A stretch of 64,000 bases of DNA, taken from Schmidtea polychroa (lineage: Eukaryota). A program made the position numbers and the translations under genes. Each line of letters begins with the position of its first letter. The stretch's first letter is position 1. The notes beneath the pieces were generated by a model. The model saw only the letters and a program-made list of their open reading frames with translations. It had not been told where the DNA came from and searched no databases. The stretch spans positions 161,076,001-161,140,000 of the forward strand of contig CM097886.1 of NCBI GenBank assembly GCA_044892525.1, written 5' to 3'. Positions 23,241-53,119 of the stretch are shown one piece after another.

Positions 23241-23328
23241 ATTGGTCCGCACGAATAAGAATTTGATATATATACAACTACCAAAAACATTAAATTTACT
23301 GTTAACCCCGAGCATTTCATAGGTAAGA
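23241..23328 (+). promoter_or_regulatory. Putative LTR promoter (inverted CCAAT, TATA-like) and leader splice donor
   Basis: ATTGG 23241-45, TATATATA 23267-74, AG|GTAAGA donor at 23323, lying between two copies of the 28-bp repeat tttactgttaaccccgagcatttcatag (23295-23322, 23344-23371). Function is inferred. Confidence 0.4.
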
Positions 23329-27060: not shown

Positions 27061-27078
27061 TGGGGGCTCAGCCGGGAT
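27061..27078 (+). promoter_or_regulatory. Primer-binding site, tRNA-Pro-like
   Basis: TGGGGGCTCAGCCGGGAT, 16/18 identical to the canonical tRNA-Pro PBS TGGGGGCTCGTCCGGGAT; 7 nt downstream of the 5' LTR. Confidence 0.8.
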
Positions 27079-36000: not shown

Positions 36001-39000
36001 GATAACGCACCCAGATAACACGATGCCATCCCTCCCATTACCAGATGGACACTTTGGTAGAATGGTAGGAGAAGTGATGTACACATACCAGTGTACCAAG
36101 ACGTATGCACGAATGCCAGAAAAATCCATACTACCCGAAAAGAGATGTGCAAATGAATTAGAAATCCGTTATAAAGGACAAAATCGATTCGTCCAACCAG
36201 TCACTAGAATTATGAATCCAGTGGGTTTCTACCCAAATCTCTTTAACTGTTCTAATGCATACGGACCTTTATATGAAAGACCCGATGGGAAATGGATGAT
36301 GTTACCGGGAAAAACCATATCCGAGGAACCCAAGAAATTTGGATTAATAGAACTCGCCACAGAGCTGGATTTCAAACCTATAGACGTGTCAAACGGTGGT
36401 ATGTATTCCCCAGAAGATCTAGAAACAGCACGACTTAACGTACTCTTTCCAGCCAGACGAGAATCCATTTTGTCAAATATGGTTACAATAACGGGGGGAA
36501 CAAACTATCAATCAGGCCCGAATTACGAGCTGCTATTATCGCCAGACCATTTTCAACAAGCTACGTCAAACATGATGAAAGCAATGTGGGGAAGATTCTT
36601 AGTTTTTGGACAAATGATGGCCGGGATATTAGGGATCATACTCATAATTCAGATAGTCAGAGTAATACTAACACAAATGTTAGCTTGTTTCGATATATAC
36701 AAGCGGGAAAAGAAAGTTAACTGGAAAATGATAGTAGGCTTCTTACCATTTTTAGCTAAAACCATGGTATTACATGGTCACTCAAAAGACATTCATCGGA
36801 TAAAGCGATTGATTAAAATATTAACAAAGATTAAAGGAACCGACGAGGAAGTAGGCAGACGATTCCGGAAAGTAATGTACGATGAAGCAACAAGACGACA
36901 ATTGAAAAAGAATAAGCCAAAATTCTTGGACCGATTTAGAAGCCAATCATCTAACAGCGATAGTGACGACGATGATAACGGGAACGATAAATGTCTTTAT
37001 CCAAACAGAAACCCAAACGAAAAACCAATGGAAACGGCACCATATTGGGAAAAGGAAAAGACAAACACCTGGATCGCCAATGGAAGCTATATACCACCGG
37101 ATATCGTGGGACCACAAGCAGCTTTGACCATGACACAAAATATGTATCCGCAATTACCGAGTCAACCCGGTATGCATTATATGCCAATACGACGTACCAA
37201 AAGTGTAGATCAAGCAGATGACGTAAGAACAATCGCAGCAATGAGTCTACCTGGAGGTCCAGCAGTAACAGTTATGATTCAAATCAATGGTAAAGAAACC
37301 AATGCTATGATAGACACAGGAGCTAATGTATCAGCGATAGCGATTAATCAAATTCCCAGTAAACACTGGAAAGATATCGAATCAACAACAATTCACATCA
37401 TAGCATGTAGTAAAGAAACAGTGGACGTGGTCGGAAGATGGTGGACTACATTGAGATACCAGGACAACGAAATTGAAACGTATTTGGCAGTAATACCAAA
37501 ACTTAGCGTACCATGCATAATCGGAACGGACCTGATGCCAGAATTATTAAAAGAAGTCGTAATAGACTTAACAACTATGTGTTTAAAAGACAAAACCGGT
37601 AGAATATGCAAAATGAATGCAGTCATCAGATGTCCAGAAAAAATAATAGTACCAGCAAAATCGCAGATGATTTGTCAGATAAAAGTGGATACGGGTATGG
37701 AAGGAGAAGTTATCTTTGAACCAAGCAAGTCATTCGAAAAGCGACGAGAATTACCACTCGCAAGAGAAATAATCACAATAAACCAAGAAGGAGTGATACC
37801 GCTCAACATCACGAATTTCGAAGAGGAAGACAAAATCATTTATGAGAACGAAAAATTGGGAAGATTGACCCCAATGATGGACATAGAATTACCGAAAGTG
37901 ACCAACGAGATGATCAAAGATGATGAATTATGGACAATAGATAGTATGTTGTTGACGAATGATGAAAAGAAAAAATTACACCGATTGTTGGTAGAATATA
38001 AAGATATATTCGCCATCTCAGACTTAGACTTGGGTACATGCGATGTTACCCTACATGCAATACCCCTCATAGATGAAACTCCAATTGCATTAAGACCATA
38101 CAAGCTAGCAGAAATGCAAAAAGAAATAGCCGAAGCCGAAGTACAAAAGATGCTGGACGCAAAAGTAATCGAACCAAGTTGCTCACCTTGGCAATTCCCA
38201 GTGGTCATGGTGAAAAAGAAAGATGGCACCCAACGATTCTGTATCGATTATCGGAAGTTAAACGCAGTGACCAAGAGAGATACCTATCCATTGCCGGACA
38301 TCAATGAGATGTTATTGATGTTGCAAGGGGCAGCATATTTTACTTCTTTAGATCTAAAAAGTGGATACTGGCAGATTAAAGTCAAAGATGAGGACAAAGA
38401 GAAAACAGCTTTCACGTTGGGACGAGATCTATATCAATTCAGGAAAATGCCATTTGGACTGACCAACGCACCAGCATCATTTCAACGGTGTATGAACTTT
38501 GTCACCCATGGAATCAAACAATGTATGGTATATATTGATGATTTACTAATCTATTCAGCGACATTTGAACAACATCTGGAAGATATCCGAAACGTATTTA
38601 TTAGATTAAGACAGTGGAAACTCAAACTCAAACCATCAAAATGCGATTGGGCAAAGGAAAAAGTCACGTTTTTAGGACACATAGTGTCAGCTAAAGGAAA
38701 GGAGCCAGATCCAAGAAACATTGAGAAAATAAAAACATGTCCAGCACCGAAAACTGTCACCCAAGTGCAGGAATTTCTAGGATTATGCGGATACTATCGC
38801 AAATTTATCAAAAATTATGCAGGAATTGCAAAACCAATCCAGGAATTAGTAAAGAAGGATATTTCGTTCATTTGGGAAAAAGAACAACAACAGGCGTTCG
38901 AAACGCTGAGGGATAAACTAATCGAAGCACCTATCCTCGTACACCCAGATTTTAAGAAGCCATTTCTATTGGCAACGGATGCAAGCGGGTACGCGGCAGG

Positions 39001-42000
39001 CGCGATTCTGGGACAATTAGACGATGAGGGAAAAGAGAGAGTAATCGGGTATTACAGTCGAACATTCAAAAAGCACGAAAAGAACTATTCGGTAACAGAA
39101 CGAGAAGCATTGGCTATAATACAAGCTATCAAACACTTCCGATATTTACTATGGGGACATGAGATATGCATAACCACAGATCATCAACCATTAGTGTGGT
39201 TAGGGCAACATAAAGAAGCGTCCAGTAGACTGATGCGATGGGCCATGCAATTGCAAGAATACTCCCCATTTATAAAATTCAAAGCGGGAAGAGCAAATGC
39301 CAACGCCGATTGTATGTCAAGATTTATTTTCCCAGATTTGGTGGATTCAGAAATGCAACGCATATGCTTAATAGTAGCGGAAGATTTGGATTTCTGTCAA
39401 TTGCGAAAGGACCAACAAGAGGACGCGGAATTAAAACAAATTATCGATTATGTAAAAACCGGAAAGACAGATGTATATGCGAAAGACCAAAAATTAAAAG
39501 AACATATGGATAAACACCGACACCGATATGTTATAGAGAAAGATTGGTTGCTGATAATGGATGGGGAAAAACGATTAATGTGTATACCGGAAAACCGACG
39601 AAAAGAGCTACTAACGCAATATCACGACGGGAGATTGGGAGGACATATGTCATCGAAAAAGACGTTAGCAAGAATGAAACAGAAATATTTTTGGCCTACG
39701 TTAACTGAAGATGTAACCGAATGGGTAAAAAATTGTCTAACTTGTGCAACCAGGAAGAATACGGGATCAAAATGGAAAGCACCTTTAACGCCAATGCCAG
39801 TACCAATAGAACCAATGACAATGATATCCATGGACGTAGTTGGTCCACTACCAGAGTCAGATAAAGGAAACGTTTACATTCTGGTGATCACAGACTTTCT
39901 TACGAAATTTCCAGAAGCATTCGCGATGCCAGACCAAAAAGCTAAAACAATCGCAAAAATTTTGGTAGAAGAGATATGTTGCCGATATGGAACACCAAAA
40001 CAAATCTTAACCGATCAGGGAACTAATTTTATGAGTGAGATAATGAGCGAAGTAACAAATTACTTCAAAATAGCAAAACTAAGAACATCTCCATACCACC
40101 CTCAAACCAATGGGATGACGGAAAGATTTAATGGAACACTTATACAAATGTTATCAAACTACGTTGACCGTCACCAACGAGATTGGGACGAATATATAAA
40201 CCTATGTCTTATGGCGTACAGAATGTCGATTCACGCATCAACGAAAATGAGCCCATTCAAATTAATGTACGGAAGAGAATGTAACATGCCAATGGACCTG
40301 GAATACCAACCACCGATATCGCAGTATATGGAGATCGATGATTATGTTACGAAATTCAAGGAAAGAATGCAAGAAATTTGGGAAACTGCGGGATTAAATA
40401 TCAAGTTCTACCAGGAAAGTTATAAAGATTTACACGATCGAAAGAAAAACGTGAAGCAACATACGTTCCAAACAGGTGATTGGGTAATGATAGAAACCCC
40501 GGAATTAATTCCAGGAACCACAAAAAAGTTACAACGCAACGGAAAAGGACCATATGAGATCTTATTCGTAGGCGAAACTAATGTAAGAGTGAAATTGGTA
40601 AATAACCCCTTTACCAGACCAATATACGTAAACGTGGCACGATGCAAATCAATTCCAAAAACAGCCACTAGTCAACCAGAAGGCCGTACATTAACCACAC
40701 GTTCGCAAACCTACCGAATGAACATGATGCAACAACTCGCAGAACCGATCACTAGACGATTAGGTATCCAACCATCAGAAGCGGAAAAGATTGTAAAAGA
40801 GGTAAAAATTAAAATACCTGGATGGGCAAAAGATCGATTAGATTTCGAAATATTAGGAGGATTATTGACGATGATCGAGAACTATGCAAATAGAGAAAGG
40901 ACACACCCATTATTGCGAGTAGTCAAAAGCCAATGGCCAATATTAATTACCATAACAGATCATTACGGAGACACACCACTACACAAACTCATGAAAGTAG
41001 GTAACAACGAGCAAATACTAGAAACAATAGAAGCATTTCACGACTGCAAGCGATCAACAGAACAAACAAACAACCAAGGTTACACACCATTAATGATAGC
41101 CGCAAACAGAGGCAAAACAAAAGACATTATAACCGCATTACTCGATACCGGATCGAAAATAACTACACAAGACCACGAGCGGAAAAACGCTCTACATCAT
41201 GCTATCGGAGGGAGAAGTACCGAGGCGTTCACGTCATTGATGGAACTACTATCATATGAGGACAATCGGGAAGTCGGAAACATGTATGATGGATTGTTAA
41301 CAGCGATCAAAGAAAAACTGACGACAATTACCGGAATGTTAATTACATGGCGAAATCCAATTCGAAACGATTATATGATCAACGTAAACGAAGCGTTCAC
41401 GAGAGGAGAGAACACGCTGATGAGAGAAGCTATGAAAGGACATCATTTATTCGAAATCCCGAATCAATTACTAGAACGAGGGATAAAATTCACAAATCAC
41501 AAAGACGAACAGTTAACAAAAAAGCGAATCGACACATTCGAAAAATCACTATTCCAATTTACTAACCAAGTACGAAATAAATATTGGGAAACGGTAAGTG
41601 TGTTATATATGATGGACACAATGAATAACATCCGCGAGAATTACATGGATATTATCCAAGTACTTACAGCAGAGGAACGAATCAATAATCCAAACGGAAA
41701 GAAAACGAAAATAAGGTATGAGAAATCCAGGGAATCAAAGTCAACAACGAACCAAACGGTCATAAACAACGTCATCGAAACCAAATCAATGAGTATAGAT
41801 CAAGAGGCAATAATACGCAAAGCAAAAGAAGTGTTCTTTGAGGAAATGCTAGAGTTGTCAGACGAAATAATATTGTCAAAAATAATAAAAGCTGTACATA
41901 CATACGCAAGAGATCAAACCACGGGTTTAGATATCGGGAAAATCAAAACCTTCTTGCCTCGAGCATTTACGATGGTAACGAAGGATTCCAGAACACCCCT

Positions 42001-43936
42001 ACAACAAGCAATACTAGCAGCGAAAGAAAATAGAGCAATAACGATCGTGAGAATCCTTGGAGATATGGGCGAGGAAACCAACACGAAAAATGAACAAGGT
42101 GAAACCGCTATGATGTATGCAGCTATAACGAAAATACACCCAAAAACACTCCACATCCTACATCAATCAGGATCGAAACTAGACGAAAAGTCCAATGAAG
42201 GAAATTCCACCTTGGACTGGGCAACCATACAGCCAAACTTAGAAATGATCAGATTTATTTGCAAAAATGCGACAAAAGAAGAAGTTGAAAATATGTGCAA
42301 AAACACATCTCAGTTTCAATGGAATACGGTACGGAAAAATCTAGAAGCAATGAAATTATTATTAACCTGGAGAGTACCACAAAATAATAAATATGCGATA
42401 AATGTAAACGAATTCTACGAAAACGGAGAAAATGCGATGGTAAAGAATACCCTAACTAAGGGGGGGACGCCTAAAATTATTTTATTAGTATTAAATAGAG
42501 AAGACCTAAAATTCACGCAAAATCAGAACGAGCAACAACGAATTGGGAAACATCGTCGTATGCAATTGAGAGAGTTAGTTAAAGAATGGAATAGAAAGAG
42601 ACATGCTGCAACGGGTAGAAAAGAGTTTGAATTCGAAGCAAAATTAGCAAGAAACAGAGTGCTAACAGCATATCGCAGATTATTGAACGATATAAATGTC
42701 GAGGACGACATTTTAAATGACAGCGGGGGAGATAAATACGATGACAATGATGGAAAAGGCCGGAAAGAGGATAAAGAGAAAAGAGAACCGGAAGAGGATA
42801 AACCGGAAAACAAGGATTTGGATACGAAAAGAGAGGGAAACAGGCCGGGAACCAAGACCAAAGAGGAGGAAAAATCGAATAATGGAAAACAGAGGGTATG
42901 CCTACCTTTCACTAACAAAGAAATAGAGACAAATATGATATTAATGATAATTATGCTTACCATGATAGAGTTAGTAACAGCTCAGGGAGGGACGAGAACG
43001 ATAAAAGAAACCAAAGAAGCGGAGAATCAAGATAGCAAAGAGGATGAACTAAAGCAAGAAAAGAAAAAGCAAGCACAAGAGCAGCAGTGGGATTTAAAGG
43101 AAGAATGGGACTTAAAGGAAAGGTGCATACTAGGAAGATGCATGTCTAGAGCGTATCAGAAACTAGTACTGATAAATGAGGACACAGAACCAATAACAGA
43201 AGTAAGAATACAAGAAGCATACCGAAATCGAGACGGGAAGAGAATAACGAACGTCAAAGGAAAAGAGGTACACCTAGGAAAAGGTGGTGAAGTAGTAATA
43301 ACGCAGCTCCAACCAAGAAAAGAGCACAAAGTCTGTATTTCAAGATTAGGACCGGGGGAGAGATGCCATCAATATGTGACGCAGCAGCAGCCCCCGAAGG
43401 AATATACGGTTTGTATCTGGAGAAACGAATCAAAAAGAGAATGCCGACGATACCCGGGGAAAAGAGGAAAGAAAAGGAAAAACCGCGACGAAAAGGACGA
43501 AGGAGGAAAGCACAAGAAAACCGGCGAGGAAGCTCAAGACAACTATGTTTCGGAAGAAGAGATGGAAAAAATACAAAAGATGGCAAAGGAGGGTATGAAC
43601 GAGGAAATAGCAAGAATACGGGAAAGGATGAAAGGAAACGGCAAAAGAGGGAACGAGAAAAGTACAGAAGCAATATCAACATTAACAAACCAGGAAAAAC
43701 CAGAGAGTATAAGCGTGAAGCAGATGATGTGGATCAGTGGGATAATAATAACAGGGGCATTCCTAATCATAACGGGGGGAACAATAAAAATAATTAAGGA
43801 TAAACGACATCGCGGAGAACTAGAGATGACTCGAATCAGAAATTTCCAACATCGAGTGAAACGACCAAGTGATATCAAACAAGAACAGTGGGTGGAGGCC
43901 TGGAACGCTCAGCGCCCTCCAAACTCACGTATATAG
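30083..43936 (+). CDS. 4,617-aa Gag-Env-Pol-ankyrin polyprotein of the giant retroelement
   Basis: One uninterrupted ORF: capsid-like N-terminus, 3 CCHC knuckles, Ubl domains, glycoprotein, DTG protease, YIDD RT, TDAS RNase H, HHCC/DDE/GPY integrase, ankyrin repeats, C-terminal TM. Confidence 0.95.
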   Translation: MTNVVKTDEYKEKFRGEPFNGNANKLATFITNFEVYITVCGWTPEAISKRMPLFLCDSALEVYLEAKERDTKLEKWEDIKTFLKKTFGASKPINQALGELANRKQRANESITLYASELRRLAKKAMNGKLPEENLIGYFIEGLRREEVRASVGCQMCKTLEEAIDWATRCELHLPAQMNIMQEEGRIATAIAKADNGDNNNQEPKMNQFIPGAHQIFKPPQGRSNGNNGNRNNPNNENNFNNRRNMNDNKQCRTCGKPGHWDRDCYRNSNCNRCGRRGHTENVCQLRGCFNCGQPGHISRDCRERGQQQRPPQRNNNYIANPQRQSNPNEGKQMNVMQEISQMKQMMQQMMRPRQESAPQQTQNIRMMRSTENLNNYEVHQHVQEWQRLQAEEERIKRERNQQRQEQPLRINMMKLVKDMKSQYCYNYGKSPRVVPMTEPEKVKEITTEMKTENSTTISKGNQRIQKIFWKKIKDKIEKEHNKAKTETEDENNKSEEQTSQLNHQMLQESESEETTIFERKKLKRVPRMRNLQINMMKRTKDVASSDEEEDYVSSLGGEILQPNEISEPSKGEIKEEESGNEITSESEDEDIEIKLRKAREEAIKQVAEILPVVVRNQEFIDVIPFRRFVQKVMKLERNEKDLIPNEEKPIIKNYMEKMKQADTTRYVIKIGTSRGLERMWIKNTVTDELFDWIREHLGSSRKKEYLYQYQGEQIKPDMHLVDALIWPGETQILKLHKEKQPANLYDWAKDAKAEYDFNIKLKLEQIKQCTLRRNLDKLIKQIQEQVEDNWDLLITRRAPAMYELMSRLRDTEMLRMSDWRTIKLIHKYGRLKETQPQRLEITIWLPNEEKRRIKMSNQSTVDDLVSKINQEITEKVRSESSDGMVDDVVMMYDKIILRAEDDTSLSEMGMWDNHQIIRIVPMDEFRTRDVTYQKEIRDRMKTLYQKSTEIIEIHQQWLKEKELQGKITKLNTRSCRRTPWERVWNAESKEWEIRKGTFVETDIGETESESEEEEEEPPKYEEEAREQTSDDEGETDVTSESENEARHIHAMRKKEREYADMDGEEATEAREREEKERYKQLGDILAMGAKNQKRQVVALANIILKTSENIHNLRGMAKAIEEYRQYNEWYPEQLEQIIRKWRNQEWAQDTQERYHIRIKYPDKSIEELEVHPTTKIRELKKKLAYETPFHLQLFGKSLDDNADVGITPMRLEETNVLTMAETLGKPLKRKSKIIKPTKGSLSTPSPNKAPSKSNETEEVEEIILEDSDDEPGERSPLLVRWPTGAEMWTNNQPSTSYQQPTKLNSKEIIDNTTETETDEQFQKQREPTKVTPESQTDKIIDEWNEWLRNNDSSLPRTDNERNPNYENTREAGTMMEKRAKGRPKKQGEKSEFKTKEQLKQEQGQVRLEKLDKIVWDLKEAQPTIERGEKWIRELLKDMLIITNPQLRRLWQRKVASTEARQLWHIVSGIIPKLIKEKTKTTKTDWGETKKVIEQLTTNANDDEHHLVVITYLMYNLMGLAARKIPNKQFANHVEMTVSIIENTIEPHIIRAGGWKRLIQAPRKNEQERSMQVRLKKLLNELEWELPMKDPASRKASINSLMMTMMIWMLCTSGATGFTIYDCDNMIMRDKYSLRDIEECRQASPNKLDIVRTKVTYHVYQESDFIRTQARECVVSKKVLAYYCGQYSYSTLILPGLDKEIVSIQREDCKELFRTGALKMHNGVTIHGQTGMIKTESVYVSGKVKSSDGSCNGGTYTIRGEVISGVVVIESYTVELKEYEAQFDANNYQMKTNPTCRATENVCRTGVSTIIYEANTQKCRLQLLKSALFNEVKGEIYENENDEDGNDRVRMRNGKPMPPSPREKRLSTQKTPTALITDDPDLGMRFIKEKETTKCDSIVYKTNYAGIYMSRQIIDRAVGKIATEDVKLYLYANNKMDFLFHRGQTTLQKVYYDLIQNDCSLNKEILKTKLAIAITHPDNTMPSLPLPDGHFGRMVGEVMYTYQCTKTYARMPEKSILPEKRCANELEIRYKGQNRFVQPVTRIMNPVGFYPNLFNCSNAYGPLYERPDGKWMMLPGKTISEEPKKFGLIELATELDFKPIDVSNGGMYSPEDLETARLNVLFPARRESILSNMVTITGGTNYQSGPNYELLLSPDHFQQATSNMMKAMWGRFLVFGQMMAGILGIILIIQIVRVILTQMLACFDIYKREKKVNWKMIVGFLPFLAKTMVLHGHSKDIHRIKRLIKILTKIKGTDEEVGRRFRKVMYDEATRRQLKKNKPKFLDRFRSQSSNSDSDDDDNGNDKCLYPNRNPNEKPMETAPYWEKEKTNTWIANGSYIPPDIVGPQAALTMTQNMYPQLPSQPGMHYMPIRRTKSVDQADDVRTIAAMSLPGGPAVTVMIQINGKETNAMIDTGANVSAIAINQIPSKHWKDIESTTIHIIACSKETVDVVGRWWTTLRYQDNEIETYLAVIPKLSVPCIIGTDLMPELLKEVVIDLTTMCLKDKTGRICKMNAVIRCPEKIIVPAKSQMICQIKVDTGMEGEVIFEPSKSFEKRRELPLAREIITINQEGVIPLNITNFEEEDKIIYENEKLGRLTPMMDIELPKVTNEMIKDDELWTIDSMLLTNDEKKKLHRLLVEYKDIFAISDLDLGTCDVTLHAIPLIDETPIALRPYKLAEMQKEIAEAEVQKMLDAKVIEPSCSPWQFPVVMVKKKDGTQRFCIDYRKLNAVTKRDTYPLPDINEMLLMLQGAAYFTSLDLKSGYWQIKVKDEDKEKTAFTLGRDLYQFRKMPFGLTNAPASFQRCMNFVTHGIKQCMVYIDDLLIYSATFEQHLEDIRNVFIRLRQWKLKLKPSKCDWAKEKVTFLGHIVSAKGKEPDPRNIEKIKTCPAPKTVTQVQEFLGLCGYYRKFIKNYAGIAKPIQELVKKDISFIWEKEQQQAFETLRDKLIEAPILVHPDFKKPFLLATDASGYAAGAILGQLDDEGKERVIGYYSRTFKKHEKNYSVTEREALAIIQAIKHFRYLLWGHEICITTDHQPLVWLGQHKEASSRLMRWAMQLQEYSPFIKFKAGRANANADCMSRFIFPDLVDSEMQRICLIVAEDLDFCQLRKDQQEDAELKQIIDYVKTGKTDVYAKDQKLKEHMDKHRHRYVIEKDWLLIMDGEKRLMCIPENRRKELLTQYHDGRLGGHMSSKKTLARMKQKYFWPTLTEDVTEWVKNCLTCATRKNTGSKWKAPLTPMPVPIEPMTMISMDVVGPLPESDKGNVYILVITDFLTKFPEAFAMPDQKAKTIAKILVEEICCRYGTPKQILTDQGTNFMSEIMSEVTNYFKIAKLRTSPYHPQTNGMTERFNGTLIQMLSNYVDRHQRDWDEYINLCLMAYRMSIHASTKMSPFKLMYGRECNMPMDLEYQPPISQYMEIDDYVTKFKERMQEIWETAGLNIKFYQESYKDLHDRKKNVKQHTFQTGDWVMIETPELIPGTTKKLQRNGKGPYEILFVGETNVRVKLVNNPFTRPIYVNVARCKSIPKTATSQPEGRTLTTRSQTYRMNMMQQLAEPITRRLGIQPSEAEKIVKEVKIKIPGWAKDRLDFEILGGLLTMIENYANRERTHPLLRVVKSQWPILITITDHYGDTPLHKLMKVGNNEQILETIEAFHDCKRSTEQTNNQGYTPLMIAANRGKTKDIITALLDTGSKITTQDHERKNALHHAIGGRSTEAFTSLMELLSYEDNREVGNMYDGLLTAIKEKLTTITGMLITWRNPIRNDYMINVNEAFTRGENTLMREAMKGHHLFEIPNQLLERGIKFTNHKDEQLTKKRIDTFEKSLFQFTNQVRNKYWETVSVLYMMDTMNNIRENYMDIIQVLTAEERINNPNGKKTKIRYEKSRESKSTTNQTVINNVIETKSMSIDQEAIIRKAKEVFFEEMLELSDEIILSKIIKAVHTYARDQTTGLDIGKIKTFLPRAFTMVTKDSRTPLQQAILAAKENRAITIVRILGDMGEETNTKNEQGETAMMYAAITKIHPKTLHILHQSGSKLDEKSNEGNSTLDWATIQPNLEMIRFICKNATKEEVENMCKNTSQFQWNTVRKNLEAMKLLLTWRVPQNNKYAINVNEFYENGENAMVKNTLTKGGTPKIILLVLNREDLKFTQNQNEQQRIGKHRRMQLRELVKEWNRKRHAATGRKEFEFEAKLARNRVLTAYRRLLNDINVEDDILNDSGGDKYDDNDGKGRKEDKEKREPEEDKPENKDLDTKREGNRPGTKTKEEEKSNNGKQRVCLPFTNKEIETNMILMIIMLTMIELVTAQGGTRTIKETKEAENQDSKEDELKQEKKKQAQEQQWDLKEEWDLKERCILGRCMSRAYQKLVLINEDTEPITEVRIQEAYRNRDGKRITNVKGKEVHLGKGGEVVITQLQPRKEHKVCISRLGPGERCHQYVTQQQPPKEYTVCIWRNESKRECRRYPGKRGKKRKNRDEKDEGGKHKKTGEEAQDNYVSEEEMEKIQKMAKEGMNEEIARIRERMKGNGKRGNEKSTEAISTLTNQEKPESISVKQMMWISGIIITGAFLIITGGTIKIIKDKRHRGELEMTRIRNFQHRVKRPSDIKQEQWVEAWNAQRPPNSRI
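30836..30988 (+). other. Gag nucleocapsid: three CCHC zinc knuckles
   Basis: CRTCGKPGHWDRDC, CNRCGRRGHTENVC, CFNCGQPGHISRDC. Confidence 0.95.
32078..33742 (+). other. Three ubiquitin/SUMO-like domains within the polyprotein (32078-32290, 32600-32848, 33542-33742)
   Basis: Beta-grasp-like patterns: YVIKI...YLYQYQGEQIKPDMHLVDALI; LEITIWLPN...TVDDLVSKI...DDTSLSEMGM; IRIKYPD...HPTTKIRELKKKL...LQLFGKSLDD. Confidence 0.6.
34300..34760 (+). other. Bcl-2-like helical domain within the polyprotein, preceded by an AT-hook-like motif (34214-34240)
   Basis: BH2-like IEPHIIRAGGWKRLI; weak BH1-like EHHLVVITYL; KRAKGRPKK. Confidence 0.5.
34874..36780 (+). other. Envelope glycoprotein, chuvirus/herpes-gB-like (class III fusion), with internal signal peptide and C-terminal TM
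   Basis: Hydrophobic INSLMMTMMIWMLCTSGATG followed by FTIYDC...SLRDIEEC...ECVV...YYCGQYS...EDCKELFRTG; later YANNKMDF, QNDC, GEVMYTYQC, GGMYSPEDL, LFPARR; TM FLVFGQMMAGILGIILIIQIVRVIL (36596-36690). The cysteine spacing is as I recall for chuvirus-type glycoproteins. Confidence 0.85.
37262..40650 (+). other. Pol region: aspartic protease, dUTPase-like spacer, RT, RNase H, integrase
   Basis: MIDTGA (D at 37313); PYKL and RFCIDYRKLN; YIDD 38531-42; LATDASG; HDGRLGGH...CLTC; SMDVVG, TDQG, GMTERFN; GKGPY. Confidence 0.97.
40958..42560 (+). other. Two tandem ~340-aa ankyrin-repeat modules after integrase
   Basis: GDTPLH, GYTPLMIAA, KNALHHA and RTPLQQA, GETAMMYAA, GNSTLDWA; paired motifs are exactly 1,020 nt apart. 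Confidence 0.85.
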
Positions 43937-44096
43937 AAAGGAATATGACTGTATATAATTGTAAAAAGTAAGTATATCTTATGTATATAACAGTACTATA
44001 TCTGTATATAAGCGCGGTATCAATATTATACAATAACGGGAATCATAAAATAAAATTAAATTTACATAAGAGTTGAAAAGTGTATATAAATTAGGA

Positions 44097-44456
44097 ATGG
44101 ATCAAGGAAATAACGAAATGAACCACAACACAGTAACTGAAGAATTATGGAAGCAACAATGTGCCGTATTAGCACAATTAGTGTCCAATTTGCAAGAACA
44201 AGGACTGACGATGCACAGAAACCTGATCGAGAGTATGAACAGAGGATTTAGTTATTTGAAGATAATTGAAGACCAGAGGTTAAAAATCGAACAAATGCAA
44301 AGAGAGATAGAGAGGATAACCCAATATAGCCGTCGGCAGGAAATTGAAATAGACCGAATGAGGGAGGAAGCAGAACAGACAGAAATAGAAGACTGGTCGG
44401 AATGGCTAATGAATAGAGAGGAGAGCGGACACGAAGCCGACTCTTCCGAACCCTAA
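44097..44456 (+). CDS. Accessory ORF, ~119-aa coiled-coil protein of unknown function
   Basis: The track start is a TTG (44073); the first ATG is at 44097. Heptad-rich, with an acidic tail. Confidence 0.65.
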   Translation: MDQGNNEMNHNTVTEELWKQQCAVLAQLVSNLQEQGLTMHRNLIESMNRGFSYLKIIEDQRLKIEQMQREIERITQYSRRQEIEIDRMREEAEQTEIEDWSEWLMNREESGHEADSSEP

Positions 44457-44541
44457 ACCAAACCTAGCTTAAAATGTAAATAATTGTAAATAAAATATCG
44501 AACCTGTATCGATAAGAACTATTTGTACATATAATTATAGA

Positions 44542-45930
44542 ATGGATAAACGACAAAGAGAAGAGTTCAGAGAGATTGTCGAGCAAGTCCGAAAATCTAC
44601 AACGATCAGAATACACAAACATGTTATGTGCGGAATATGTGAAAAGTTGTTAAAGGAACCTCACCAAACGCAATGTGGATGCAGAGCATGTAAAGAATGT
44701 ATCAGTGAAGCAATAAAGAATAGACCACAGAGGTGCCCGGTGTGTAAAGAGACACTAATATCGAGTTTAGAAGACACTAACGAGGATAAAGCCGCAGTGA
44801 AAGACATGTTAAACACCAACCTGGGATGCAAAAATGCCCCATGCGAATGGAAAGGAGTAATATGGAAGGTAGTACAACATATGGGAGAATGTATGTACAG
44901 AATTGGCCAGTGTGAAAGGTGCCATAAAACCATTCGAGCAAGCGAAGAAAAAGAGCATCAAAGGCAGTGTGAAGAGAGATTGGAAAGATGTGAACACTGT
45001 GGAGAAATAGATACGTGGATAAATCTCACCCTCAAACATCACAATGTCCAAGAGGAGAGAGTATGTGCGGAGTTCAGTGGGGAATGCCCAAACGGATGTA
45101 ACCAAGGGGAAATAATGAAGGTGGCACAGCATCTAAGGGAATGCGAAAAGAAAAGAATGACATGTGTACTAGGTAGATGGGGTTGTCAGAAATTACTACA
45201 CCGAGGTGAGTTACCACATCATTTAGTAGAAAATGCTTCAACTCACGCAGAAATGTGGTCGACTGCGTTACAAGAAAGCGAAGAGAAAGTAAAACAAATG
45301 GAGATAGAGATAACATCGTTGAAAGTATTAGTCAAAGAACTACTAGAAGAAAGGAAAGCGTTCGAAGAAGCCCGAGCAAACATAAAGATGCAAATAAACC
45401 GAACAGAAATTAGTAATAATCAGGCCAAGGAGCTACATCAGAAAATACGGGAAATAAATCTACATGAGATAACCCCAACAGCACCCTACATATGGAAAAT
45501 AACGGGAGTAAAAGAAAGAATACGAAGAGCAAAAACCGGAGAAGAGACAAGAATAACAAGTCCTACATTCCATTCTTGGAAAAATGGGTACAAAATGAAA
45601 ATGAAGATATATCCCAACGGGGACGGAACCGGATTAGATACGCACTTTTCGATTTTCTTTCTGTTATGTAAAGGAGAATACGACGAAATATTAGAATGGC
45701 CGTTCCAGGCAAAAATCGATATTACTCTGATGAGCAACCAAAGTATACATGAGCAAAGCTTCAAAACAACGGGGAATCAAATAGCTTACCAGAGGCCCCT
45801 CAACGAAGAAGGATCAGCAACAGGAGCACCTACGTTCATCTCACAACAAAGAGTAGAAGATATGGCGAGAAATGATACCATATATATCAAGATGACCGTG
45901 AGGAAAGAGGAGAAGGGTAGAACGGAATAA
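44542..45930 (+). CDS. TRAF: Intronless TRAF-family protein (RING, TRAF zinc fingers, coiled coil, MATH/TRAF-C)
   Basis: RING CGICEKLL..PHQTQCGCRACKEC...CPVC (44629-44745); several CxxxC/H-x3-C fingers; MATH YIWKI...SPTF...GYKMKMKIYPNGDGTG..THFSIFF.LCKGEYDEILEWPF. Confidence 0.93.
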   Translation: MDKRQREEFREIVEQVRKSTTIRIHKHVMCGICEKLLKEPHQTQCGCRACKECISEAIKNRPQRCPVCKETLISSLEDTNEDKAAVKDMLNTNLGCKNAPCEWKGVIWKVVQHMGECMYRIGQCERCHKTIRASEEKEHQRQCEERLERCEHCGEIDTWINLTLKHHNVQEERVCAEFSGECPNGCNQGEIMKVAQHLRECEKKRMTCVLGRWGCQKLLHRGELPHHLVENASTHAEMWSTALQESEEKVKQMEIEITSLKVLVKELLEERKAFEEARANIKMQINRTEISNNQAKELHQKIREINLHEITPTAPYIWKITGVKERIRRAKTGEETRITSPTFHSWKNGYKMKMKIYPNGDGTGLDTHFSIFFLLCKGEYDEILEWPFQAKIDITLMSNQSIHEQSFKTTGNQIAYQRPLNEEGSATGAPTFISQQRVEDMARNDTIYIKMTVRKEEKGRTE

Positions 45931-46123
45931 CCAATCGAATAATGTTGTATATAATAATCTGTACATATCGGTGTATATAACCAATAAAATATTATATAAT
46001 AATAGTATGAAAACCCTAAATACGAAAACCCAAAAATGATGCGAAAATTTCCCAAGAAACAGTAAATAATGAATAAATTCCTTTTTCATAATAAAAAGAT
46101 TAATCGATGTCTATGATTTAGAG

Positions 46124-47179
46124 ATGACACAAGAGAAAATAACCGAAATTGCGATAGACCCAACCAATGTCAACAAGACACAAATTCCCCGAGAACATAA
46201 CAAAAAATGGAACAAAGTAATGTTCCAACTAACTAATCTCACCCGAAACTACATCGAAGAAGCTAGAGAAGAGGAGAACAGTAAATATCAATGGCTAATC
46301 CACAATTTAAGAGAGGAAGCCGAAGCATGTAAAAGAGCATCAAAATGGGCATCATTAGAAAATACCCGCCAAGAAGCGCACAGCCACTACTTAAAGCAGC
46401 TAGTGCAGGAAGCGAGAAAGAGACTTACCGATGAGAACACCAAGCGCGAAGCGGAAAAGCAAATAGAAGGAAGGAAAATGATGCACTTAGTGGCAGAAGC
46501 GAGAAAATGGAAAAGACAAAACAGAGAAATGAAAAAAGAGATGAAAGAATTGCCCATGAGACTCGGATATGAAAGCGAACAAGGTAAATGGGAGGAGAAT
46601 TTAATAATAAAGGAAGAATTGAAAAGGTTGAGAAAGGTCGCCGCCCGAAGCCAAACCTGGCAAACAAAGGCTATGGAGTTTGAGCGACATTTGGCAATGA
46701 AGTGCGACATAAGAGAGCACGAGAATGCCGCAATGGAAGAGAGGATAACCCAACAAGCGGGACGGGTTGTGGAATTAGTAAATCAGGTAGAAGAGATGAA
46801 AAGAGACCTTAATGGATTACAAGGATCGCTGGAACAAAGAAACATGGTCCTAGCGGGAAAAAACAGAAAATTAGAAAACGAAAGGAAAATGTACAACGAA
46901 AATATTAAAAACTTAGAAATAGAAATTGAAAAATGGAAGGGCGACGAGAAAATCAAGGCCCTAGACAAACAGATAGAAGCGAAAGATGAAGAGACAAGGT
47001 ATCTCACCTATCTGCTCGACGAGGAATTGAATATCACTCGAGCTCTAAGAGACGAAGTTAGTGAACTGAGAGCTCAAATTCCCCAATATTACCTACCATA
47101 CGACCCTATTGCGATACAGTTACATTCCGCGGTCGATAGTGATGAAGGTTATGTAGGCCAGGAGGAAACCTTCGTATGA
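46124..47179 (+). CDS. Accessory ORF, 351-aa long coiled-coil protein
   Basis: ATG-initiated, E/K/R/L heptad-rich, same A-rich codon style as the polyprotein. Confidence 0.75.
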   Translation: MTQEKITEIAIDPTNVNKTQIPREHNKKWNKVMFQLTNLTRNYIEEAREEENSKYQWLIHNLREEAEACKRASKWASLENTRQEAHSHYLKQLVQEARKRLTDENTKREAEKQIEGRKMMHLVAEARKWKRQNREMKKEMKELPMRLGYESEQGKWEENLIIKEELKRLRKVAARSQTWQTKAMEFERHLAMKCDIREHENAAMEERITQQAGRVVELVNQVEEMKRDLNGLQGSLEQRNMVLAGKNRKLENERKMYNENIKNLEIEIEKWKGDEKIKALDKQIEAKDEETRYLTYLLDEELNITRALRDEVSELRAQIPQYYLPYDPIAIQLHSAVDSDEGYVGQEETFV

Positions 47180-47348
47180 GGATGGATGAAAAGATGAAAA
47201 ACTAAAAACCGGGACGTATATCCCAAACAAAAAAATTAAAGTACAGTAAAAGTATTTGAGGGACTGTAACCCTGTGTAAATAAAAACGATATAAATGTAT
47301 AAGTATAAGTCGCACTGTAGCGCATGATTAATTGTAAATATTATAGAT

Positions 47349-48047
47349 ATGAAAATCGAGGAAATGATAGAAATTATGAGCGACGTAGAAGAGGGAGAGA
47401 TTGAGGCAGAAACAACAGAAACACAAACGCTAAAGGCCGAGTTACGGGAAGAGAAATACGAAAACGGGAGATTAATAAACAAATACCTGGAGGACCGGAA
47501 AATGATAAAGGTGTTAAAGAAAGAGTGCGAAGCGTTGGGGGAAATAAAAAGAGAAACGGAAGAGGAAAATGAATGGCTACACGAACAAAGGAAGCGAGGG
47601 AAAAACTGGGAAAAGATAGCGGAAGAACTATGGAAAGAGAGGGCAAGCTTCAAAGCAAAGGAGGTAATCCAAGACTACTGGAAAACTGAGGCGAAGGAGC
47701 GCCAAACAGCTATAAATAAATTAAAACGACAACTAGAAGAAAACCAACGGGAAAGTAAAGAAATGAGGAAGTGGGTCCGCAAATATAGAGAAATAGAAAG
47801 AAAACATCAACAACAAAATTACCTGCAAGAAAACGAACAAGATCTCCTACAAATCGAGCTAAAAAGAAACCTTGAAAAGAAAAGGGAAGAAATTAGACGC
47901 TTGGAAAAGGAAATTAGACATCTAAAGAGAGAAGCCCGTGAAAAAGACCGACAATTGGAAATGCTGCCCGAGTTAAGACACAGGGTAATTAAAGCAGAGT
48001 CCACCTTGATGAGAATCGGCGAAAATAATCCAAATCAGAACCATTAA
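47349..48047 (+). CDS. Accessory ORF, 232-aa coiled-coil protein
   Basis: ATG-initiated, almost entirely heptad/charged. Confidence 0.75.
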   Translation: MKIEEMIEIMSDVEEGEIEAETTETQTLKAELREEKYENGRLINKYLEDRKMIKVLKKECEALGEIKRETEEENEWLHEQRKRGKNWEKIAEELWKERASFKAKEVIQDYWKTEAKERQTAINKLKRQLEENQRESKEMRKWVRKYREIERKHQQQNYLQENEQDLLQIELKRNLEKKREEIRRLEKEIRHLKREAREKDRQLEMLPELRHRVIKAESTLMRIGENNPNQNH

Positions 48048-48102
48048 ATTAAGGGTCATTAAAACCAATTGTAAATAAACATAATGAATGTATAATAGTA
48101 TC

Positions 48103-48744
48103 ATGCGAGGCGAGATGATGATAACAATGATGGTATTGATGATTCTGATGGAGAGCAAACAAATAGACGCCCAACCGAAAATCGTACGAGATTACCGAAA
48201 TCAAAATCAAGAACCTAAACAAGAATCCAGTCAATGCACATACCCGATGACCGTAAAAACCCATATCATCCAAACCATTCAATCAACCCGATCACACATC
48301 AACAACATCCAAACAATGTGTAAAAAGAATCCCATTTGTAAAATGATAAACAAACAAATCCTCGAACAAATTCAACAATTCGACCAGTTGGAACAACAAA
48401 TGCAACAAGAGAATTTTGGAAATCTGGTAGAAAAGCCAAAAATACCTCCCGAAATCAATGACACCCATTATCTCATATATGTGGTGATCGCAGAAACCCT
48501 CCTCCTATGTCTACCAATATTCATGAAAATTTACGAAGTTCGAAATAGATGTAGAGTCTCGACATCAATAAGAGTAACCTCGAACCAAAATCCTCAAGAA
48601 GTGCCCCTGACAAATCTTAACCGACCTCGAACCCCGAGTAATCAACCAATCCAGCCGAAATCTAATAGTCAGACCTATCTCAACATCAATACCCAAACCA
48701 ACCAACAGCCGCCAGCAGAAGCATCAATGGTTGACAGTTCATAA
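48103..48744 (+). CDS. Accessory ORF, small type-I membrane protein (signal peptide plus TM)
   Basis: MMITMMVLMILMESKQIDAQ signal-like; TM YLIYVVIAETLLLCLPIFM; P/Q/N-rich tail. The start could be 48088 or 48103. Confidence 0.7.
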   Translation: MRGEMMITMMVLMILMESKQIDAQPKIVRDYRNQNQEPKQESSQCTYPMTVKTHIIQTIQSTRSHINNIQTMCKKNPICKMINKQILEQIQQFDQLEQQMQQENFGNLVEKPKIPPEINDTHYLIYVVIAETLLLCLPIFMKIYEVRNRCRVSTSIRVTSNQNPQEVPLTNLNRPRTPSNQPIQPKSNSQTYLNINTQTNQQPPAEASMVDSS

Positions 48745-48969
48745 ACTCTAATTCAAACATTTGTGTTATTATATGTGGAAACTTTTATTGTATGTACAAA
48801 CTATCACCTTAAGTGATACTTGCTTGGTCTTGCTTTGACCTTGATCTTACAATAAAATTTTTATCATTGTTGTATAATTTTCCGTGTTCGTGTTATATTT
48901 TTTTTGAATGAATGAATTAAGTTAATTATGCAATTGCGGGACGCAATTTTGATGGGTCCCCGAGTGATT

Positions 48970-51900
48970 TGTTGGGCTGAGTCGAAAATTTAATCGTTGA
49001 AAAATAAGAAAGTAGGGAAGTAGAACATTAAGAAAAATAAAAATAAAATAAATAAAATCAGAAATAAAATAGAATAAGGTATAAGGAAAATAATAATTAA
49101 GACATAAGAATTAAAACAAAAAATAAAATTAAGAAAAGATTAAAATAGAACAAGTTGACAAATAAATAAAGAGGAATTCAAGAAATAATAAGGAAATTAA
49201 GGAAATAAATAGAAAAACATATTAAAAATAAAGAAAATAAGGAGAAAACAACCTAAAAACAAGAAAATTATATTAAATTAATAGAAATAAGCGGTACTCA
49301 ACTCTGATTGGTCCGCACGAATAAGAATTTGATATATATACAACTACCAAAAACATTAAATTTACTGTTAACCCCGAGCATTTCATAGGTAAGAAAAATG
49401 TTTACTGTTTTTACTGTTAACCCCGAGCATTTCATAGACATCTACAACTCACGGAGACTTATTTCAAGGATCAGCAATACCAGTAGAGCAACAGTTAATT
49501 CGAAAAACTTCACAGCAATTCGAACTCAGTCACAGCAATCGACATTCGACGAACTATCATCAGACTAATTTGGAACGACTAACGTTAATTTTCCGATTCA
49601 GCCTAATTCCATAGTAAGGGATTTTTATTTATGATATTGTTTTTCGAAGTTAATAGTAAATATGTATATTTAATGAGCAATTAAACTTTTAAATTTAACC
49701 AGACTCTCTTTTCATTTGATCCTGAATAACGATTTTGATAAAGTAAATAATTTAAATGTTTAAAAGTATTTATTGGTAACAGGTGAACTCTTACATAATT
49801 TTTATGGATATTTATTTTGAAGTGGTAGTTTTATGATTTCTAATATTAACGAGAAACGTGGCGTTGAGATACTCCATGTCATGGTGTGAGGTGCCTTCGG
49901 GAGCTCAGCCGGTGGACATGGAGTATTTCAATCACGCAGCTAGATTGGGCCGAAATGTGAAGGCTTCTTCACGGGTCCAATTGCTGAAGGACTTAAAATC
50001 TGTCAGAGTACCGAAATATAGACCGAAAGGAAACCTTCTGAAATTTTCGAAAATAGGATATGTGCTTCACAGCGACTGAGGGAGTTCTCATATTAACTCT
50101 GTATTGTCCAGAGTCGTCTTACAAGACATTCATGCCACTTCTGTCTATAAATCCGAACTTACCATGTGGGGGAAAATACCATTAAACATCCATCGCTGGT
50201 TTTCTAACATATCGAGAAGTTGAAATTGCATTCGGTAGATTTTTGAAAAAGTAACTCTAATTTAGGTCATCTCTTTCAGATGCGACATCCAAATCCTAGC
50301 ATATGATGAGGAATTTACAATAAGGGAAAAATAAAACATAAAACCACAATAATACTGTATTCAATCACATATATTAACAAAATCTGGTAATACCCATCGA
50401 ATAATGTTCATGCTATTGCGTCGAAATATCCACTACTGAAATATGCTTCATAGAGTCTAGTTGGCTGGTTCGTAGAGATCTCCCATCGTTCAAAAACATC
50501 CAATATTGAGGAAATTACGAGTCGTAGTAAATAAATCCAACATCATAAGCTCAGATGGGAATCGACACGCGATGTAACATTTGCAGTTCGCTCAGTACGG
50601 TTGATAGTTACAGATAAAATTTCCATCGAACAGGCACCCATACATACAGACATACTGCTAACATAACTATGAGTAGCGTCATCCGGTCAGAAATATGCAT
50701 GAGAAACAGCAGAATCATTCCGAATGCCTCTCACCGCAGGGAATGCCGCCATGTGTCACCCTCTCTAGTGTGTGAGTAGTAATCAGTAGTCATATTAGAT
50801 AATGCTGACATGAGATGTGACTTCCAGATGACTGACTCTTAAATTTCACTACTGATAAAGGTCATTCGTACCACTAAAAAGATAAGCCAAAATAACCAGT
50901 AACCGACTACTAAGATAAGAGACTCTCTAAAGTGCACTCATTAAAGATAATTTTGCTTAAATTAAATATTCTAAATAAAAATCGAAATTGTTGAAGGGGT
51001 ATTTTAATTAATAACCGAAAATTCAAACCAAACTTTATAACTAAACCATAGGAAGTTTCACCTAAGTGTTGTAGAGGTTTATCGTAATTCTGATTAGATG
51101 TTACAAATAATAGTAGTAGCCTTTGAGCCAAATTTAAATTAACTAAAGCATCCACAGGAATTTTTGGGTTATAAAATAGCTAGTAATATTGTATTTAAAT
51201 TTCTCATATTCCATGTAAACTACGTATCGCAATAGAAAACTAAATCCGATAACAAATTATTATGTAATTACAATGTTTTTACGATGCCATATTTCTACGA
51301 CGATATCACCGTATGGTATGGATAAGGGGTGATCATAAAATAGTGACGTATAGTTTATACGAAATTACGAGTTGTTACTTATTCCGCTACTTGAGGTAAG
51401 GGTGCAAGTTTTTACTAGTTGCATTTGGTCCAAAAACCTTATTTTGCATTAGAATAACAACAAATAATCAGCGAAATTTAAACGAAGTGTAGTATAGTGT
51501 ATTTGTAATGAAATAGGTTTATTCACTCCGGCATGAACAAATCCGTAAATTGCCTTTATGTGCGATAGATAGAAATCCAACTCGAACGCGATAGACGAAA
51601 ATTAAAATTTTTACAAATAATTTGCATTCGTCAGGGAAGCAATCAGGGCGTTGAGGAATAATTTTTGTAAAGGATACGTAAAATATTAGTAATCAGGGGT
51701 GAAGGGAGGGATCCTGTTTCATCGACTCGTCTTGTTTTCTTCCAGCACTAAGTATCCAATAGCGAATAAACCGTATATCTGATCCGAAATTTTTGGATAT
51801 AGTCATCATAGTTTTCTTCTTTAGCCATCCATATGTTATCAAACCACAAATCAGCTCTACGTCCCTGCTTCTCCTGCTCAGATAAAAATGCAGTGATTAA

Positions 51901-53119
51901 AGATCTTCAGGCCCAGATCGGTCGATATAAACGAAAAATCGACGAACTGGAAGGGACATGGTTTAGTCCCGCTCGGATGAAGGAGATCCAAAAGAAGCTC
52001 GATCGTAGCGAGCATTGCCGGGACGCGCTAATATCTGAGAGCCGTGCCCAAAGAAGTCTAATCAGAGAACAATCCGAGGCACTGCATAAGGTTTACGTGC
52101 AGGCGGCTACAACCCGAAAAATAGTGCAGGTTCCCATCCGAGAGGCCGATGACATCTTTCCGCCTCATCACAACCTTTCCTCGAATCCATCTCCACCGTT
52201 CAAGAGACCGTGCCAAGACTGCGTCGAAAACGAATTGTCCCCCAAGCGACCAGATGTTGTCGTCACGGGTACCAGTAAGCCCCCCACTGCTAGTCCATCT
52301 GTATCAGTCACCCTTCTGCAAGTGGCATCTTCAAGCAAACCCAAGCGCAAACAACTCTCTCGTGCAGAGCGCAAGAAGAGACAGCGCGAACGCGCCACTA
52401 CAAAGCCAAACATCCCATCAATAGAGGATTCAACCAACGGTGGCAACTCTCACGTGTCCATCGACCTAACAACGGGACCCTCAGCACGAATCATATCAGC
52501 CGCTGGCGTAACGTGGGAAGAGAACGCTTCCGAGTTTTTTAACCTCGACGAATTATTCGCCGACGCTGAATGGGAGAAACAATAGAACCCCAGTGGCGGT
52601 CAGGACGAAGAACAAGGATCCGATCTATGTTGATTATGATGTTTTCTCTTCTTTCGACAAACATTAGTAAAGTGTACAGCTGAATCCTTGTGTCATAACG
52701 TTGAAATTAATAAATCTTGTTGTCTTACACGTTTTCGTTCATGAATAATTAGACTTTAATTAAGTGGGTTGAGTAGAGAACCCGCAAGATCTAGTGAGAA
52801 ATTCCCAATTTGCATTCAGCGAATCCTGATAAGTGGTTGTGTAAGGAAATGGACGTAAGCCCTTCTATCGGCAGTCGTGAATGGGAAGTCGAGGCCTCAG
52901 CAAGGAGTAGTTTTAAGGCAGAAGCTCACCTGCTTGCTGGTGTCTCGCCTGCATAGTGCAGTACCAACGTGAAGTGATTCACGGGCACTATGTTGGAAGA
53001 AAGTTATGTGGGGTTTCACTCCAGGTTGACAAATCGGTGGCGCCTTTTATTCGAGATGGACAATCAACCCTTAGACCCGTCAATATGGTAGAGCGGTCAG
53101 CCGAGGTGTAACCCCAACA
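48970..53119 (+). repeat. 3' LTR (4,150 bp)
   Basis: Same termini as the 5' LTR; LTR ORFs recur at +26,066 (23792/49858, 24844/50910, 25767/51833). Confidence 0.97.
51833..52585 (+). CDS. LTR-encoded 250-aa protein (3' LTR copy)
   Basis: Same protein as 25767-26519; one synonymous difference seen (25994 G vs 52060 A). Confidence 0.7.
   Translation: MLSNHKSALRPCFSCSDKNAVIKDLQAQIGRYKRKIDELEGTWFSPARMKEIQKKLDRSEHCRDALISESRAQRSLIREQSEALHKVYVQAATTRKIVQVPIREADDIFPPHHNLSSNPSPPFKRPCQDCVENELSPKRPDVVVTGTSKPPTASPSVSVTLLQVASSSKPKRKQLSRAERKKRQRERATTKPNIPSIEDSTNGGNSHVSIDLTTGPSARIISAAGVTWEENASEFFNLDELFADAEWEKQ

Follow-up and report, generated by a model that had tools for sequence, protein, structure and literature searches.

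How a giant retrotransposon might express a row of separate genes behind its polyprotein is the question raised by a locus in Schmidtea polychroa, lying in a window of 64,000 nucleotides (assembly GCA_044892525.1, contig CM097886.1, positions 161,076,001 to 161,140,000; all coordinates below are those of this window). The plus strand of the window carries a retroelement of 30,216 bp, bounded by two long terminal repeats (LTRs) of 4150 bp each (5′ LTR 22904..27053, beginning with TG and ending with CA; 3′ LTR 48970..53119). A single base distinguishes the two LTRs, and the 4-bp target-site duplication ATTC encloses them, which indicates a young insertion. By its match to the published description the element is a Burro-type giant gypsy LTR retrotransposon, a group that is among the largest LTR retroelements known. 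Its polyprotein open reading frame (ORF; 30083..43936, 4617 aa) is followed on the same strand by five accessory ORFs, here called ORF2 (44097..44456, 119 aa), ORF3 (44542..45930, 462 aa), ORF4 (46124..47179, 351 aa), ORF5 (47349..48047, 232 aa) and ORF6 (48103..48744, with a second in-frame ATG at 48088). The type of element is known; the code at the gene junctions, the leader and the rebuilt intron described here are apparently new, and the mechanism proposed for them is inferred from the DNA alone.

The five spacers in front of the accessory ORFs measure 160, 85, 193, 169 and 55 nt, altogether 662 bases. Spacer 1 (43937..44096) contains the octamer TGTAHATA, in which H is A, C or T, at 43950, 43982, 44003 and 44081, AATAAA at 44049 and a predicted acceptor AG ending at 44094. 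Spacer 2 (44457..44541) has the octamer at 44475, 44485 and 44524, AATAAA at 44489 and an acceptor TAG ending at 44540, and spacer 3 (45931..46123) has the octamer at 45946, 45960 and 45972, AATAAA at 45983, 46072 and 46090, and on its acceptor side a branch-like TTAAT and a TAG ending at 46121. The octamers of spacer 4 (47180..47348) are at 47275, a variable copy, and 47333, with AATAAA at 47279 and the TAG ending at 47346; spacer 5 (48048..48102) carries TGTAAATAAA at 48070, AATAAA at 48074 and the TAG ending at 48098. The 13 octamers and an AATAAA in each of the five spacers had been listed in an earlier sequence-only reading of the window, and all were found where it placed them. Its rough estimate that chance would give well under one octamer also agrees with the chance model, 3000 dinucleotide shuffles per spacer, which gave a mean of 0.65 and a maximum of 5, with 13 or more in none of the shuffles. 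The reverse complement of the octamer is absent from the spacers, the motif standing on the plus strand only, and elsewhere in the element a single copy was found in 18,000 coding bases and none in the 6,165 other non-coding bases tested. The same reading had noted a TAG 1–4 nt before each ATG across spacers of about this length (here 55–193 nt), which is correct: the distances are 2, 1, 2, 2 and 4 nt for the ATGs at 44097, 44542, 46124, 47349 and 48103, and a YAG 0–4 nt from the ATG in all five spacers was reached by none of the 3000 shuffles.

The layout persists where the surrounding sequence has diverged. A set of 19 arrays at 70–94% identity was aligned spacer by spacer (20 were fetched, and L240 was dropped as showing no similarity to the array), keeping 16–19 of the 19 rows and dropping rows with unaligned flanks; of 17 upstream fetches, six lacked gag. 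The rows are related, and the counts are not independent events. TGTAHATA was present in 75 of the 78 distinct spacers, A[AT]TAAA in all 78, and all 78 had an AG shortly before the ATG; the last AG stood 0–4 nt before the ATG in 77, preceded by T, C or A. Position 5 of the octamer was T in 98 cases, A in 55, C in 14 and never G. Conservation was 0.93 in the fixed motif columns, 0.86 in the other spacer columns and 0.74–0.80 at third codon positions. The start of ORF4 has 125 exact matches, an indication of the copy number of the family, and in spacer 3 TTTAG precedes it in 98 of the 100 matches listed, the bases further upstream being variable. Spacer 4 also occurs in a second haplotype with about 20 base changes, which nevertheless has ATTAAA for AATAAA, TTAAC for TTAAT and TGTACATA in place of TGTAAATA. 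The conservation in other copies and families, which the sequence-only reading had named as a check, extends to distant relatives: in a Burro family with accessory proteins about 30% identical, seven of nine motifs stand at or directly behind stop codons, and in two metagenome loci, whose envelope region is 40% identical and whose accessory genes are different ones, all five motifs stand behind stops and a YAG is found 0–3 nt before all five downstream ATGs. Another envelope-bearing family retrieved with PF24664 (36% identity) has neither an accessory array nor motif clusters. The junctions are thereby well supported as an RNA-level signal, consisting of a 3′ splice acceptor at the ATG and a poly(A)-type hexamer together with TGTAHATA behind the preceding stop.

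The TAG before each ATG could also be read as a stop codon. The ORFs would then be translated from long RNAs by termination and reinitiation at TAG..ATG, by leaky scanning or through spacers resembling internal ribosome entry sites, the octamer serving to bind a protein. Stop-restart is known in some viruses and retrotransposons, and the position of the TAG, 1–4 nt from the ATG, would suit it. However, subfamilies have CAG or AAG where the window copy has TAG, and a metagenome relative has CAG; as neither triplet is a stop codon, this favours a splice acceptor and disfavours stop-restart; the upstream ORFs, furthermore, end 55–193 nt earlier. Translational coupling is accordingly held to be very improbable, and there are strong grounds for taking the YAGs before the ATGs as 3′ splice sites.

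If these are acceptors, a donor is needed, and a candidate lies in the LTR. A predicted promoter at 23241..23274 on the plus strand has a CCAAT box (ATTGG, 23241) and a TATA box (23267), conserved in sequence and spacing across subfamilies. It is followed by a predicted non-coding leader exon of about 26–28 nt that ends in YAG (23295..23322; second copy 49361–49388) and by a predicted 49-nt intron with a GTAAGA donor (23323..23371), the last 28 nt of which are an exact copy of the leader. All subfamilies examined show ATTGG, a TATA box and then a YAG|GTAAG donor 52–56 nt after the TATA box. The leader is duplicated in 49 of 58 promoter-motif hits, over 20–32 nt with one case of 12 nt, and ends in the same YAG; the eight hits classed as lacking a donor include L092, which is unrelated DNA. 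The intron between the copies is 45–51 nt long, and 43 nt in one further case. Eleven distinct leader types occur across the subfamilies and the two copies co-vary (in the window 23295–23371 and 49361–49437), the duplicated piece beginning about 30 nt past the TATA box, where transcription would be expected to start. That the 3′ end of the intron tracks the leader in nearly every subfamily strongly suggests that the leader donor is in use.

A way in which such an intron could be kept follows from reverse transcription. The first exon would be the leader of about 26 nt, and the packaged RNA would be spliced at the small intron. Minus-strand strong-stop DNA would then anneal through its leader to the end of the intron in the 3′ LTR, overwriting that end, and the first intron would thus be rebuilt at each reverse transcription. 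This overwriting predicts variation on the 5′ side of copy 2 of the leader and not of copy 1, together with an extra G derived from the cap, and both are seen: the 14 nt upstream of the core of copy 2 occur in 10 variants among 25 loci and those upstream of copy 1 in one variant among 29, and G is the commonest base directly before copy 2 (12 of 30 distinct variants). LTRs without the intron were found at four of 29 close loci. The copy of the leader that closes the first intron suggests how an LTR could retain an intron even when its packaged RNA is spliced; a narrow literature search found no description of a rebuilt LTR intron.

The best reading of the array, which we consider to have about an even chance of being right, is a cis-spliced common leader combined with weak poly(A) sites for the single genes. 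A single LTR promoter would give a separate mRNA for each gene, in which the non-coding leader exon of about 26 nt is cis-spliced to the predicted acceptor 1–4 nt before the ATG and which ends at a weak poly(A) site behind the stop of the same gene. Most transcripts would read through the internal sites, and some full-length genome would survive. The components of such a system are present, namely a likely promoter, a predicted short leader exon, a strong donor and a conserved acceptor before each ORF, and the leader would presumably be joined to all five downstream acceptors. The internal hexamers would on this reading serve in 3′-end formation; they are followed by 18–36% T, in comparison to 42–58% for the three best terminal ones, and the want of a U-rich downstream element at the internal sites would make read-through the usual outcome. 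The terminal AATAAA with its U/GU-rich downstream element lies at 48851..48920 on the plus strand.

Two further ORFs fit the same plan. An ORF of 250 aa within the LTR (25767..26519, plus strand; duplicate ORF 51833–52585), without a Pfam hit, has a pyrimidine-rich acceptor ending at 25758 and AATAAA at 26643. A RING-finger ORF of 161 aa, identified by Pfam (27392..27877, plus strand), has the acceptor CAG at 27389, 2 nt before its ATG, and AATAAA at 27982 and 28020 with a U-rich downstream tract. Both ORFs thus have textbook acceptors 2–9 nt before the ATG and conserved poly(A) sites, which suggests one design across the whole element. Exact coordinates are now available for the predicted promoter, leader, donor, seven acceptors at ORF starts and poly(A) sites, and with a poly(A) site for each gene many choices of cleavage and splicing would have to be balanced against the production of an intact genome. 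Spacer 1 in addition contains a conserved donor-like site, AAAGTAAGTAT (43965–43975, GT at 43968, plus strand), a near-perfect 5′ splice-site sequence that is unchanged in 17 of 18 aligned rows and altered at one position in the last; the metagenome locus L083 has three donor-like sites in its spacer 1. The window site may act as a U1 site, damping the poly(A) signal close by.

Direct traces of the predicted splicing were sought in genomic DNA and in assembled contigs. When the genome was searched for ORF starts preceded by a non-native base, spacer 3 gave no matches and spacer 5 gave one, a variant copy in which the 44 nt at 48055–48098 are deleted. The deletion can be read as GT..AG, ends exactly at the predicted acceptor and is within the length range of the short introns found here (43–51 nt). 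Four contig sets, of which three are presumed to be RNA, were aligned to 41000–53200, the presumed-RNA contigs being mostly no more than 90–95% alike. Among the contig rows listed (21 of 211 loose ends and 26 of 699 pieces) there was no joint or loose end at the five acceptors, and some contigs run unspliced across acceptors 2, 4 and 5. In one X1 contig the alignment begins with its fourth letter at 46124, which would place its start on the G of the AG in spacer 3, the position predicted by an SL fork; it was given no weight because contigs cannot show starts.

Several observations weigh against the common-leader model. The copy with the 44-nt deletion has two further deletions that are not GT..AG, which leaves the loss as only one suggestive case, and its donor, GTCATT, is weak. 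A genome search for the leader end of this family followed by a non-native base, as expected of a leader-to-acceptor junction preserved in DNA, gave a single match, which was an LTR variant; this search and the contig comparison are both insensitive. The five array acceptors are poor in pyrimidines (35–55%) in comparison to those of the LTR ORF and the leader region (50–80%), and splicing would have to pass over a strong acceptor that lies 49 nt from the donor. Neither the LTR of the distant family D nor family B nor the metagenome loci showed the leader duplication, and in the metagenome locus L081 the octamer is absent from two of the three downstream spacers. AATAAA is at chance level in the spacers (7 against 5.2 expected; 788 of 3000 shuffles), and one in each of the five spacers was reached by 273 of the 3000 shuffles. 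Among 30 close copies (97–99% identity) the motif columns are no less polymorphic than the other spacer columns; the motif at 44003 is found in the window copy alone (1/30), that at 47275 is missing in 20 copies, and four others are broken in one to five. Single motifs thus appear to be dispensable.

The variation of the motif columns among close copies, together with the chance level of AATAAA, would fit a reading of the spacers as relics with no present function, left over from host mRNA ends that were captured or from a single unit that was duplicated. Across the diverged arrays, however, conservation is higher in the spacers than at third codon positions, and higher again in the motifs than in the remaining spacer, and the same layout recurs with unrelated accessory genes. 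Host planarian poly(A) sites are, moreover, reported to be without UGUA (PMC5068929). The conservation largely refutes the relic reading, which we regard as quite improbable.

Alternatively, each spacer could be a small promoter giving an unspliced mRNA, with TGTATATAA as a TATA-like element or TGTAAATA as a forkhead site. In Oikopleura the env gene of Tor3b/4b is expressed from an internal promoter (PMC4402516), and several of the motifs here read TATATAA and lie 95–180 nt before the ATG. Yet the free interchange of T, A and C at position 5 suits neither a TATA box nor a forkhead site, and the motif is one-stranded; the forkhead site proposed in the sequence-only reading is thus unlikely. The octamers have no fixed RYAAAYA or TATAWA core and TATAWA is not enriched in the spacers (9 against 7.8). 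Internal promoters would also leave the conserved YAG with its T/C/A swaps and the GT..AG deletion unexplained, and the LTR promoter is of a different make, with CCAAT and TATA boxes and no TGTAHATA. Such promoters are considered improbable.

The strongest competitor to the common leader is an operon resolved by spliced leader (SL) trans-splicing. The LTR transcript would be cut at the internal poly(A) sites and the AG in front of each ATG would receive the host SL, which caps the downstream piece; cis-splicing of the leader encoded by the element could go on alongside. The host genome has seven SL RNA genes matching the published Schmidtea SL1 and 61 further SL-bearing copies (68 exact matches), and many captured host SL mRNAs have the ATG no more than 6 nt from the SL junction, like the array. 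The spacers of 55–193 nt also fit the thresholds of 200–300 nt used for flatworm operons (PMC12582326, PMC5832876), and a subgenomic mRNA of Cer1 of C. elegans was found with SL1 (PMC3315495). However, accessory ORFs of Burro do not follow the SL in any of the 61 SL-bearing genomic copies. For flatworms the reported SL acceptor is UUNYAG, and within 50 nt of it no further motif was reported (PMC12582326); the array acceptors do not resemble it, TTTAG being present in spacer 3 only and T making up 30–45%. The terminal AUG of the SL would be out of frame at all five junctions of the window. A leader and a donor are, besides, provided by the element itself, which also has the conserved donor-like site in spacer 1. 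As a host control, three SL-mRNA families were traced, which led to two parent genes, and no gene was evident close upstream of either; their two SL acceptors are U-rich and have no nearby TGTAHATA, but as both genes look monocistronic the control is weak.

The SL operon is on this evidence possible but doubtful. The sequence-only reading had offered either an SL operon or a common leader as the explanation of the layout. The common-leader half is supported by the TATA box, the tiny leader, the strong donor and the footprint that the leader leaves at the intron end, and for the SL half no SL-joined copy was found. A joint reading, in which an operon of at least five cistrons is resolved by coupled polyadenylation and the host SL, Pumilio sites provide stem-cell translational control and the element's own cis leader is kept through the rebuilt intron, is judged rather unlikely. 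About 61 copies of the 5′ ends of SL-capped host mRNAs are present in the genome (L084–L148 and L149–L183) and serve in their own right as a list of host trans-spliced genes. Many of them are preceded by the same TGTAGTGA, which suggests capture by one mobile element.

The octamer most likely acts on RNA, in the 3′ untranslated region of the upstream gene. The Pumilio consensus is UGUAHAUA, and the octamer matches it in standing on the sense strand behind stop codons and in allowing any base except G at position 5; the earlier suggestion of a Pumilio element thus holds up as a sequence pattern. That it is a site for a PUF (Pumilio) protein is a tentative assignment to which we give slightly less than an even chance. 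It may instead be a UGUA-type upstream enhancer that offsets the missing downstream element, a possibility rated somewhat short of even. The CFIm signal named in the sequence-only reading is favoured by the presence of a CFIm25-family gene (PF13869) in the host genome, but not by the 3P-seq data from planarians, in which host poly(A) sites show no UGUA enrichment (PMC5068929). Octamers 14–18 nt before an ATG are less well preserved among the subfamilies and are probably part of the acceptor region.

Known expression systems share parts of this arrangement. The adenovirus major late unit, in a DNA virus, has one promoter, a tripartite leader, many alternative acceptors and several poly(A) sites. 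The element resembles it in its one promoter, short common leader, many acceptors and several poly(A) sites, the splicing being predicted here, and differs in that its unit must also yield full-length genomic RNA. In human immunodeficiency virus type 1, foamy viruses, mouse mammary tumour virus and the env of Drosophila gypsy a major donor near the cap is spliced to several weak acceptors, and an ORF may lie inside the LTR. The cap-near donor, weak acceptors and LTR ORF of the element are like those of complex retroviruses, Drosophila gypsy env and Tor3a (PMC4402516), but complex retroviruses have a single poly(A) site in the 3′ LTR, whereas here there is a candidate site for each ORF and the first intron is apparently rebuilt. 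Short same-strand spacers, a poly(A) signal and an acceptor close to the ATG are shared with flatworm and nematode SL operons and with Cer1 (PMC12582326, PMC8629364, PMC5832876, PMC3315495), from which the array differs in its A-rich acceptors, TGTA motifs and available cis donor and in that no SL junction was found. LTR elements of bdelloid rotifers also have extra downstream ORFs, including DEDD-type exonucleases as in the metagenome loci L081 and L083 (RNase_T; L081:12169-13473, E 9e-4; L083:10617-12107, E 1e-5), and their extra ORF3 is said to be expressed from spliced messages; these elements are compact and usually have one extra ORF (PMC5408684).

With the published Burro/GYPSM1 (PMC6431247) the element shares a length of about 30 kb, very long LTRs, ankyrin repeats, accessory ORFs, a high copy number and a huge single polyprotein in which the env part lies in frame between those of gag and pol. 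The published cargo comprises TRAF/MATH, RING/IAP-type and BCL2-like proteins; of these, TRAF and RING are found here, TRAF, unlike there, as a separate downstream ORF and RING also as a separate ORF. The accessible text of that paper does not address the expression of the accessory ORFs, and a literature search covering openly accessible papers, chiefly their main text, found no junction code, leader duplication or rebuilt intron. Burro elements are derepressed in the planarian intestine upon loss of SMEDWI-2 (PMC8532177).

Each accessory ORF is intact in 29 or all 30 of the close copies, and third codon positions are the most variable in all four ORFs tested; by these sequence measures the accessory ORFs are intact and under purifying selection. 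ORF2 and ORF6 have no Pfam hits, and ORF6 has by eye a hydrophobic N-terminus and a later hydrophobic segment. ORF3 is TRAF-like, with RING and MATH domains in Pfam, and a TRAF search with it retrieved generic TRAF relatives only, the best full-length match being 36%. ORF4 and ORF5 are charged and by eye coiled-coil-like. BIR and BCL2 domains were not detected in the ORFs of the element (Pfam, E 0.01). In the polyprotein Pfam places, in order, Gag, a CCHC knuckle, a Monjiviricetes-type fusion glycoprotein, protease, reverse transcriptase, RNase H, integrase and ankyrin repeats. At 46200–46400 in ORF4 there are about 16 differences per 200 bases between the window copy and the other 29 close copies, in comparison to one to four in most other bins, and this patch is likely recombinant.

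A candidate primer-binding site (27061..27078, plus strand) starts 7 nt past the LTR end and is one that we take to be tRNA-Pro-like. No polypurine tract was found 5′ of the 3′ LTR at 48930–48969; a conserved GC-rich stretch stands there instead, also in family D. The internal leader region contains at 28459–28834 a 74-nt tandem repeat of about 4–5 units, with units of 68–69 nt in other subfamilies. The gag leader has conserved short GT..AG segments at 29495–29532 (38 nt) and 29799–29825 (27 nt), and before the ATG at 30083 the gag frame is open for about 107 codons. Around 29660–29760 most subfamilies are about 135 nt longer, the window copy being without part of this sequence; the extra 135 nt hold a conserved hydrophobic frame of about 60 codons, which has no ATG and starts at an ACG in good context. 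Other envelope-bearing gypsy families (L061–L080) are 16–18 kb long, with LTRs of about 1 kb and a 3319-aa polyprotein followed by about 5 kb without an ORF of at least 90 aa; in one of their LTRs a TATA box is followed 43 nt on by a strong donor. Outside the element, the minus strand at 60423–62364 carries a fragment of another gypsy element with RNase H and integrase.

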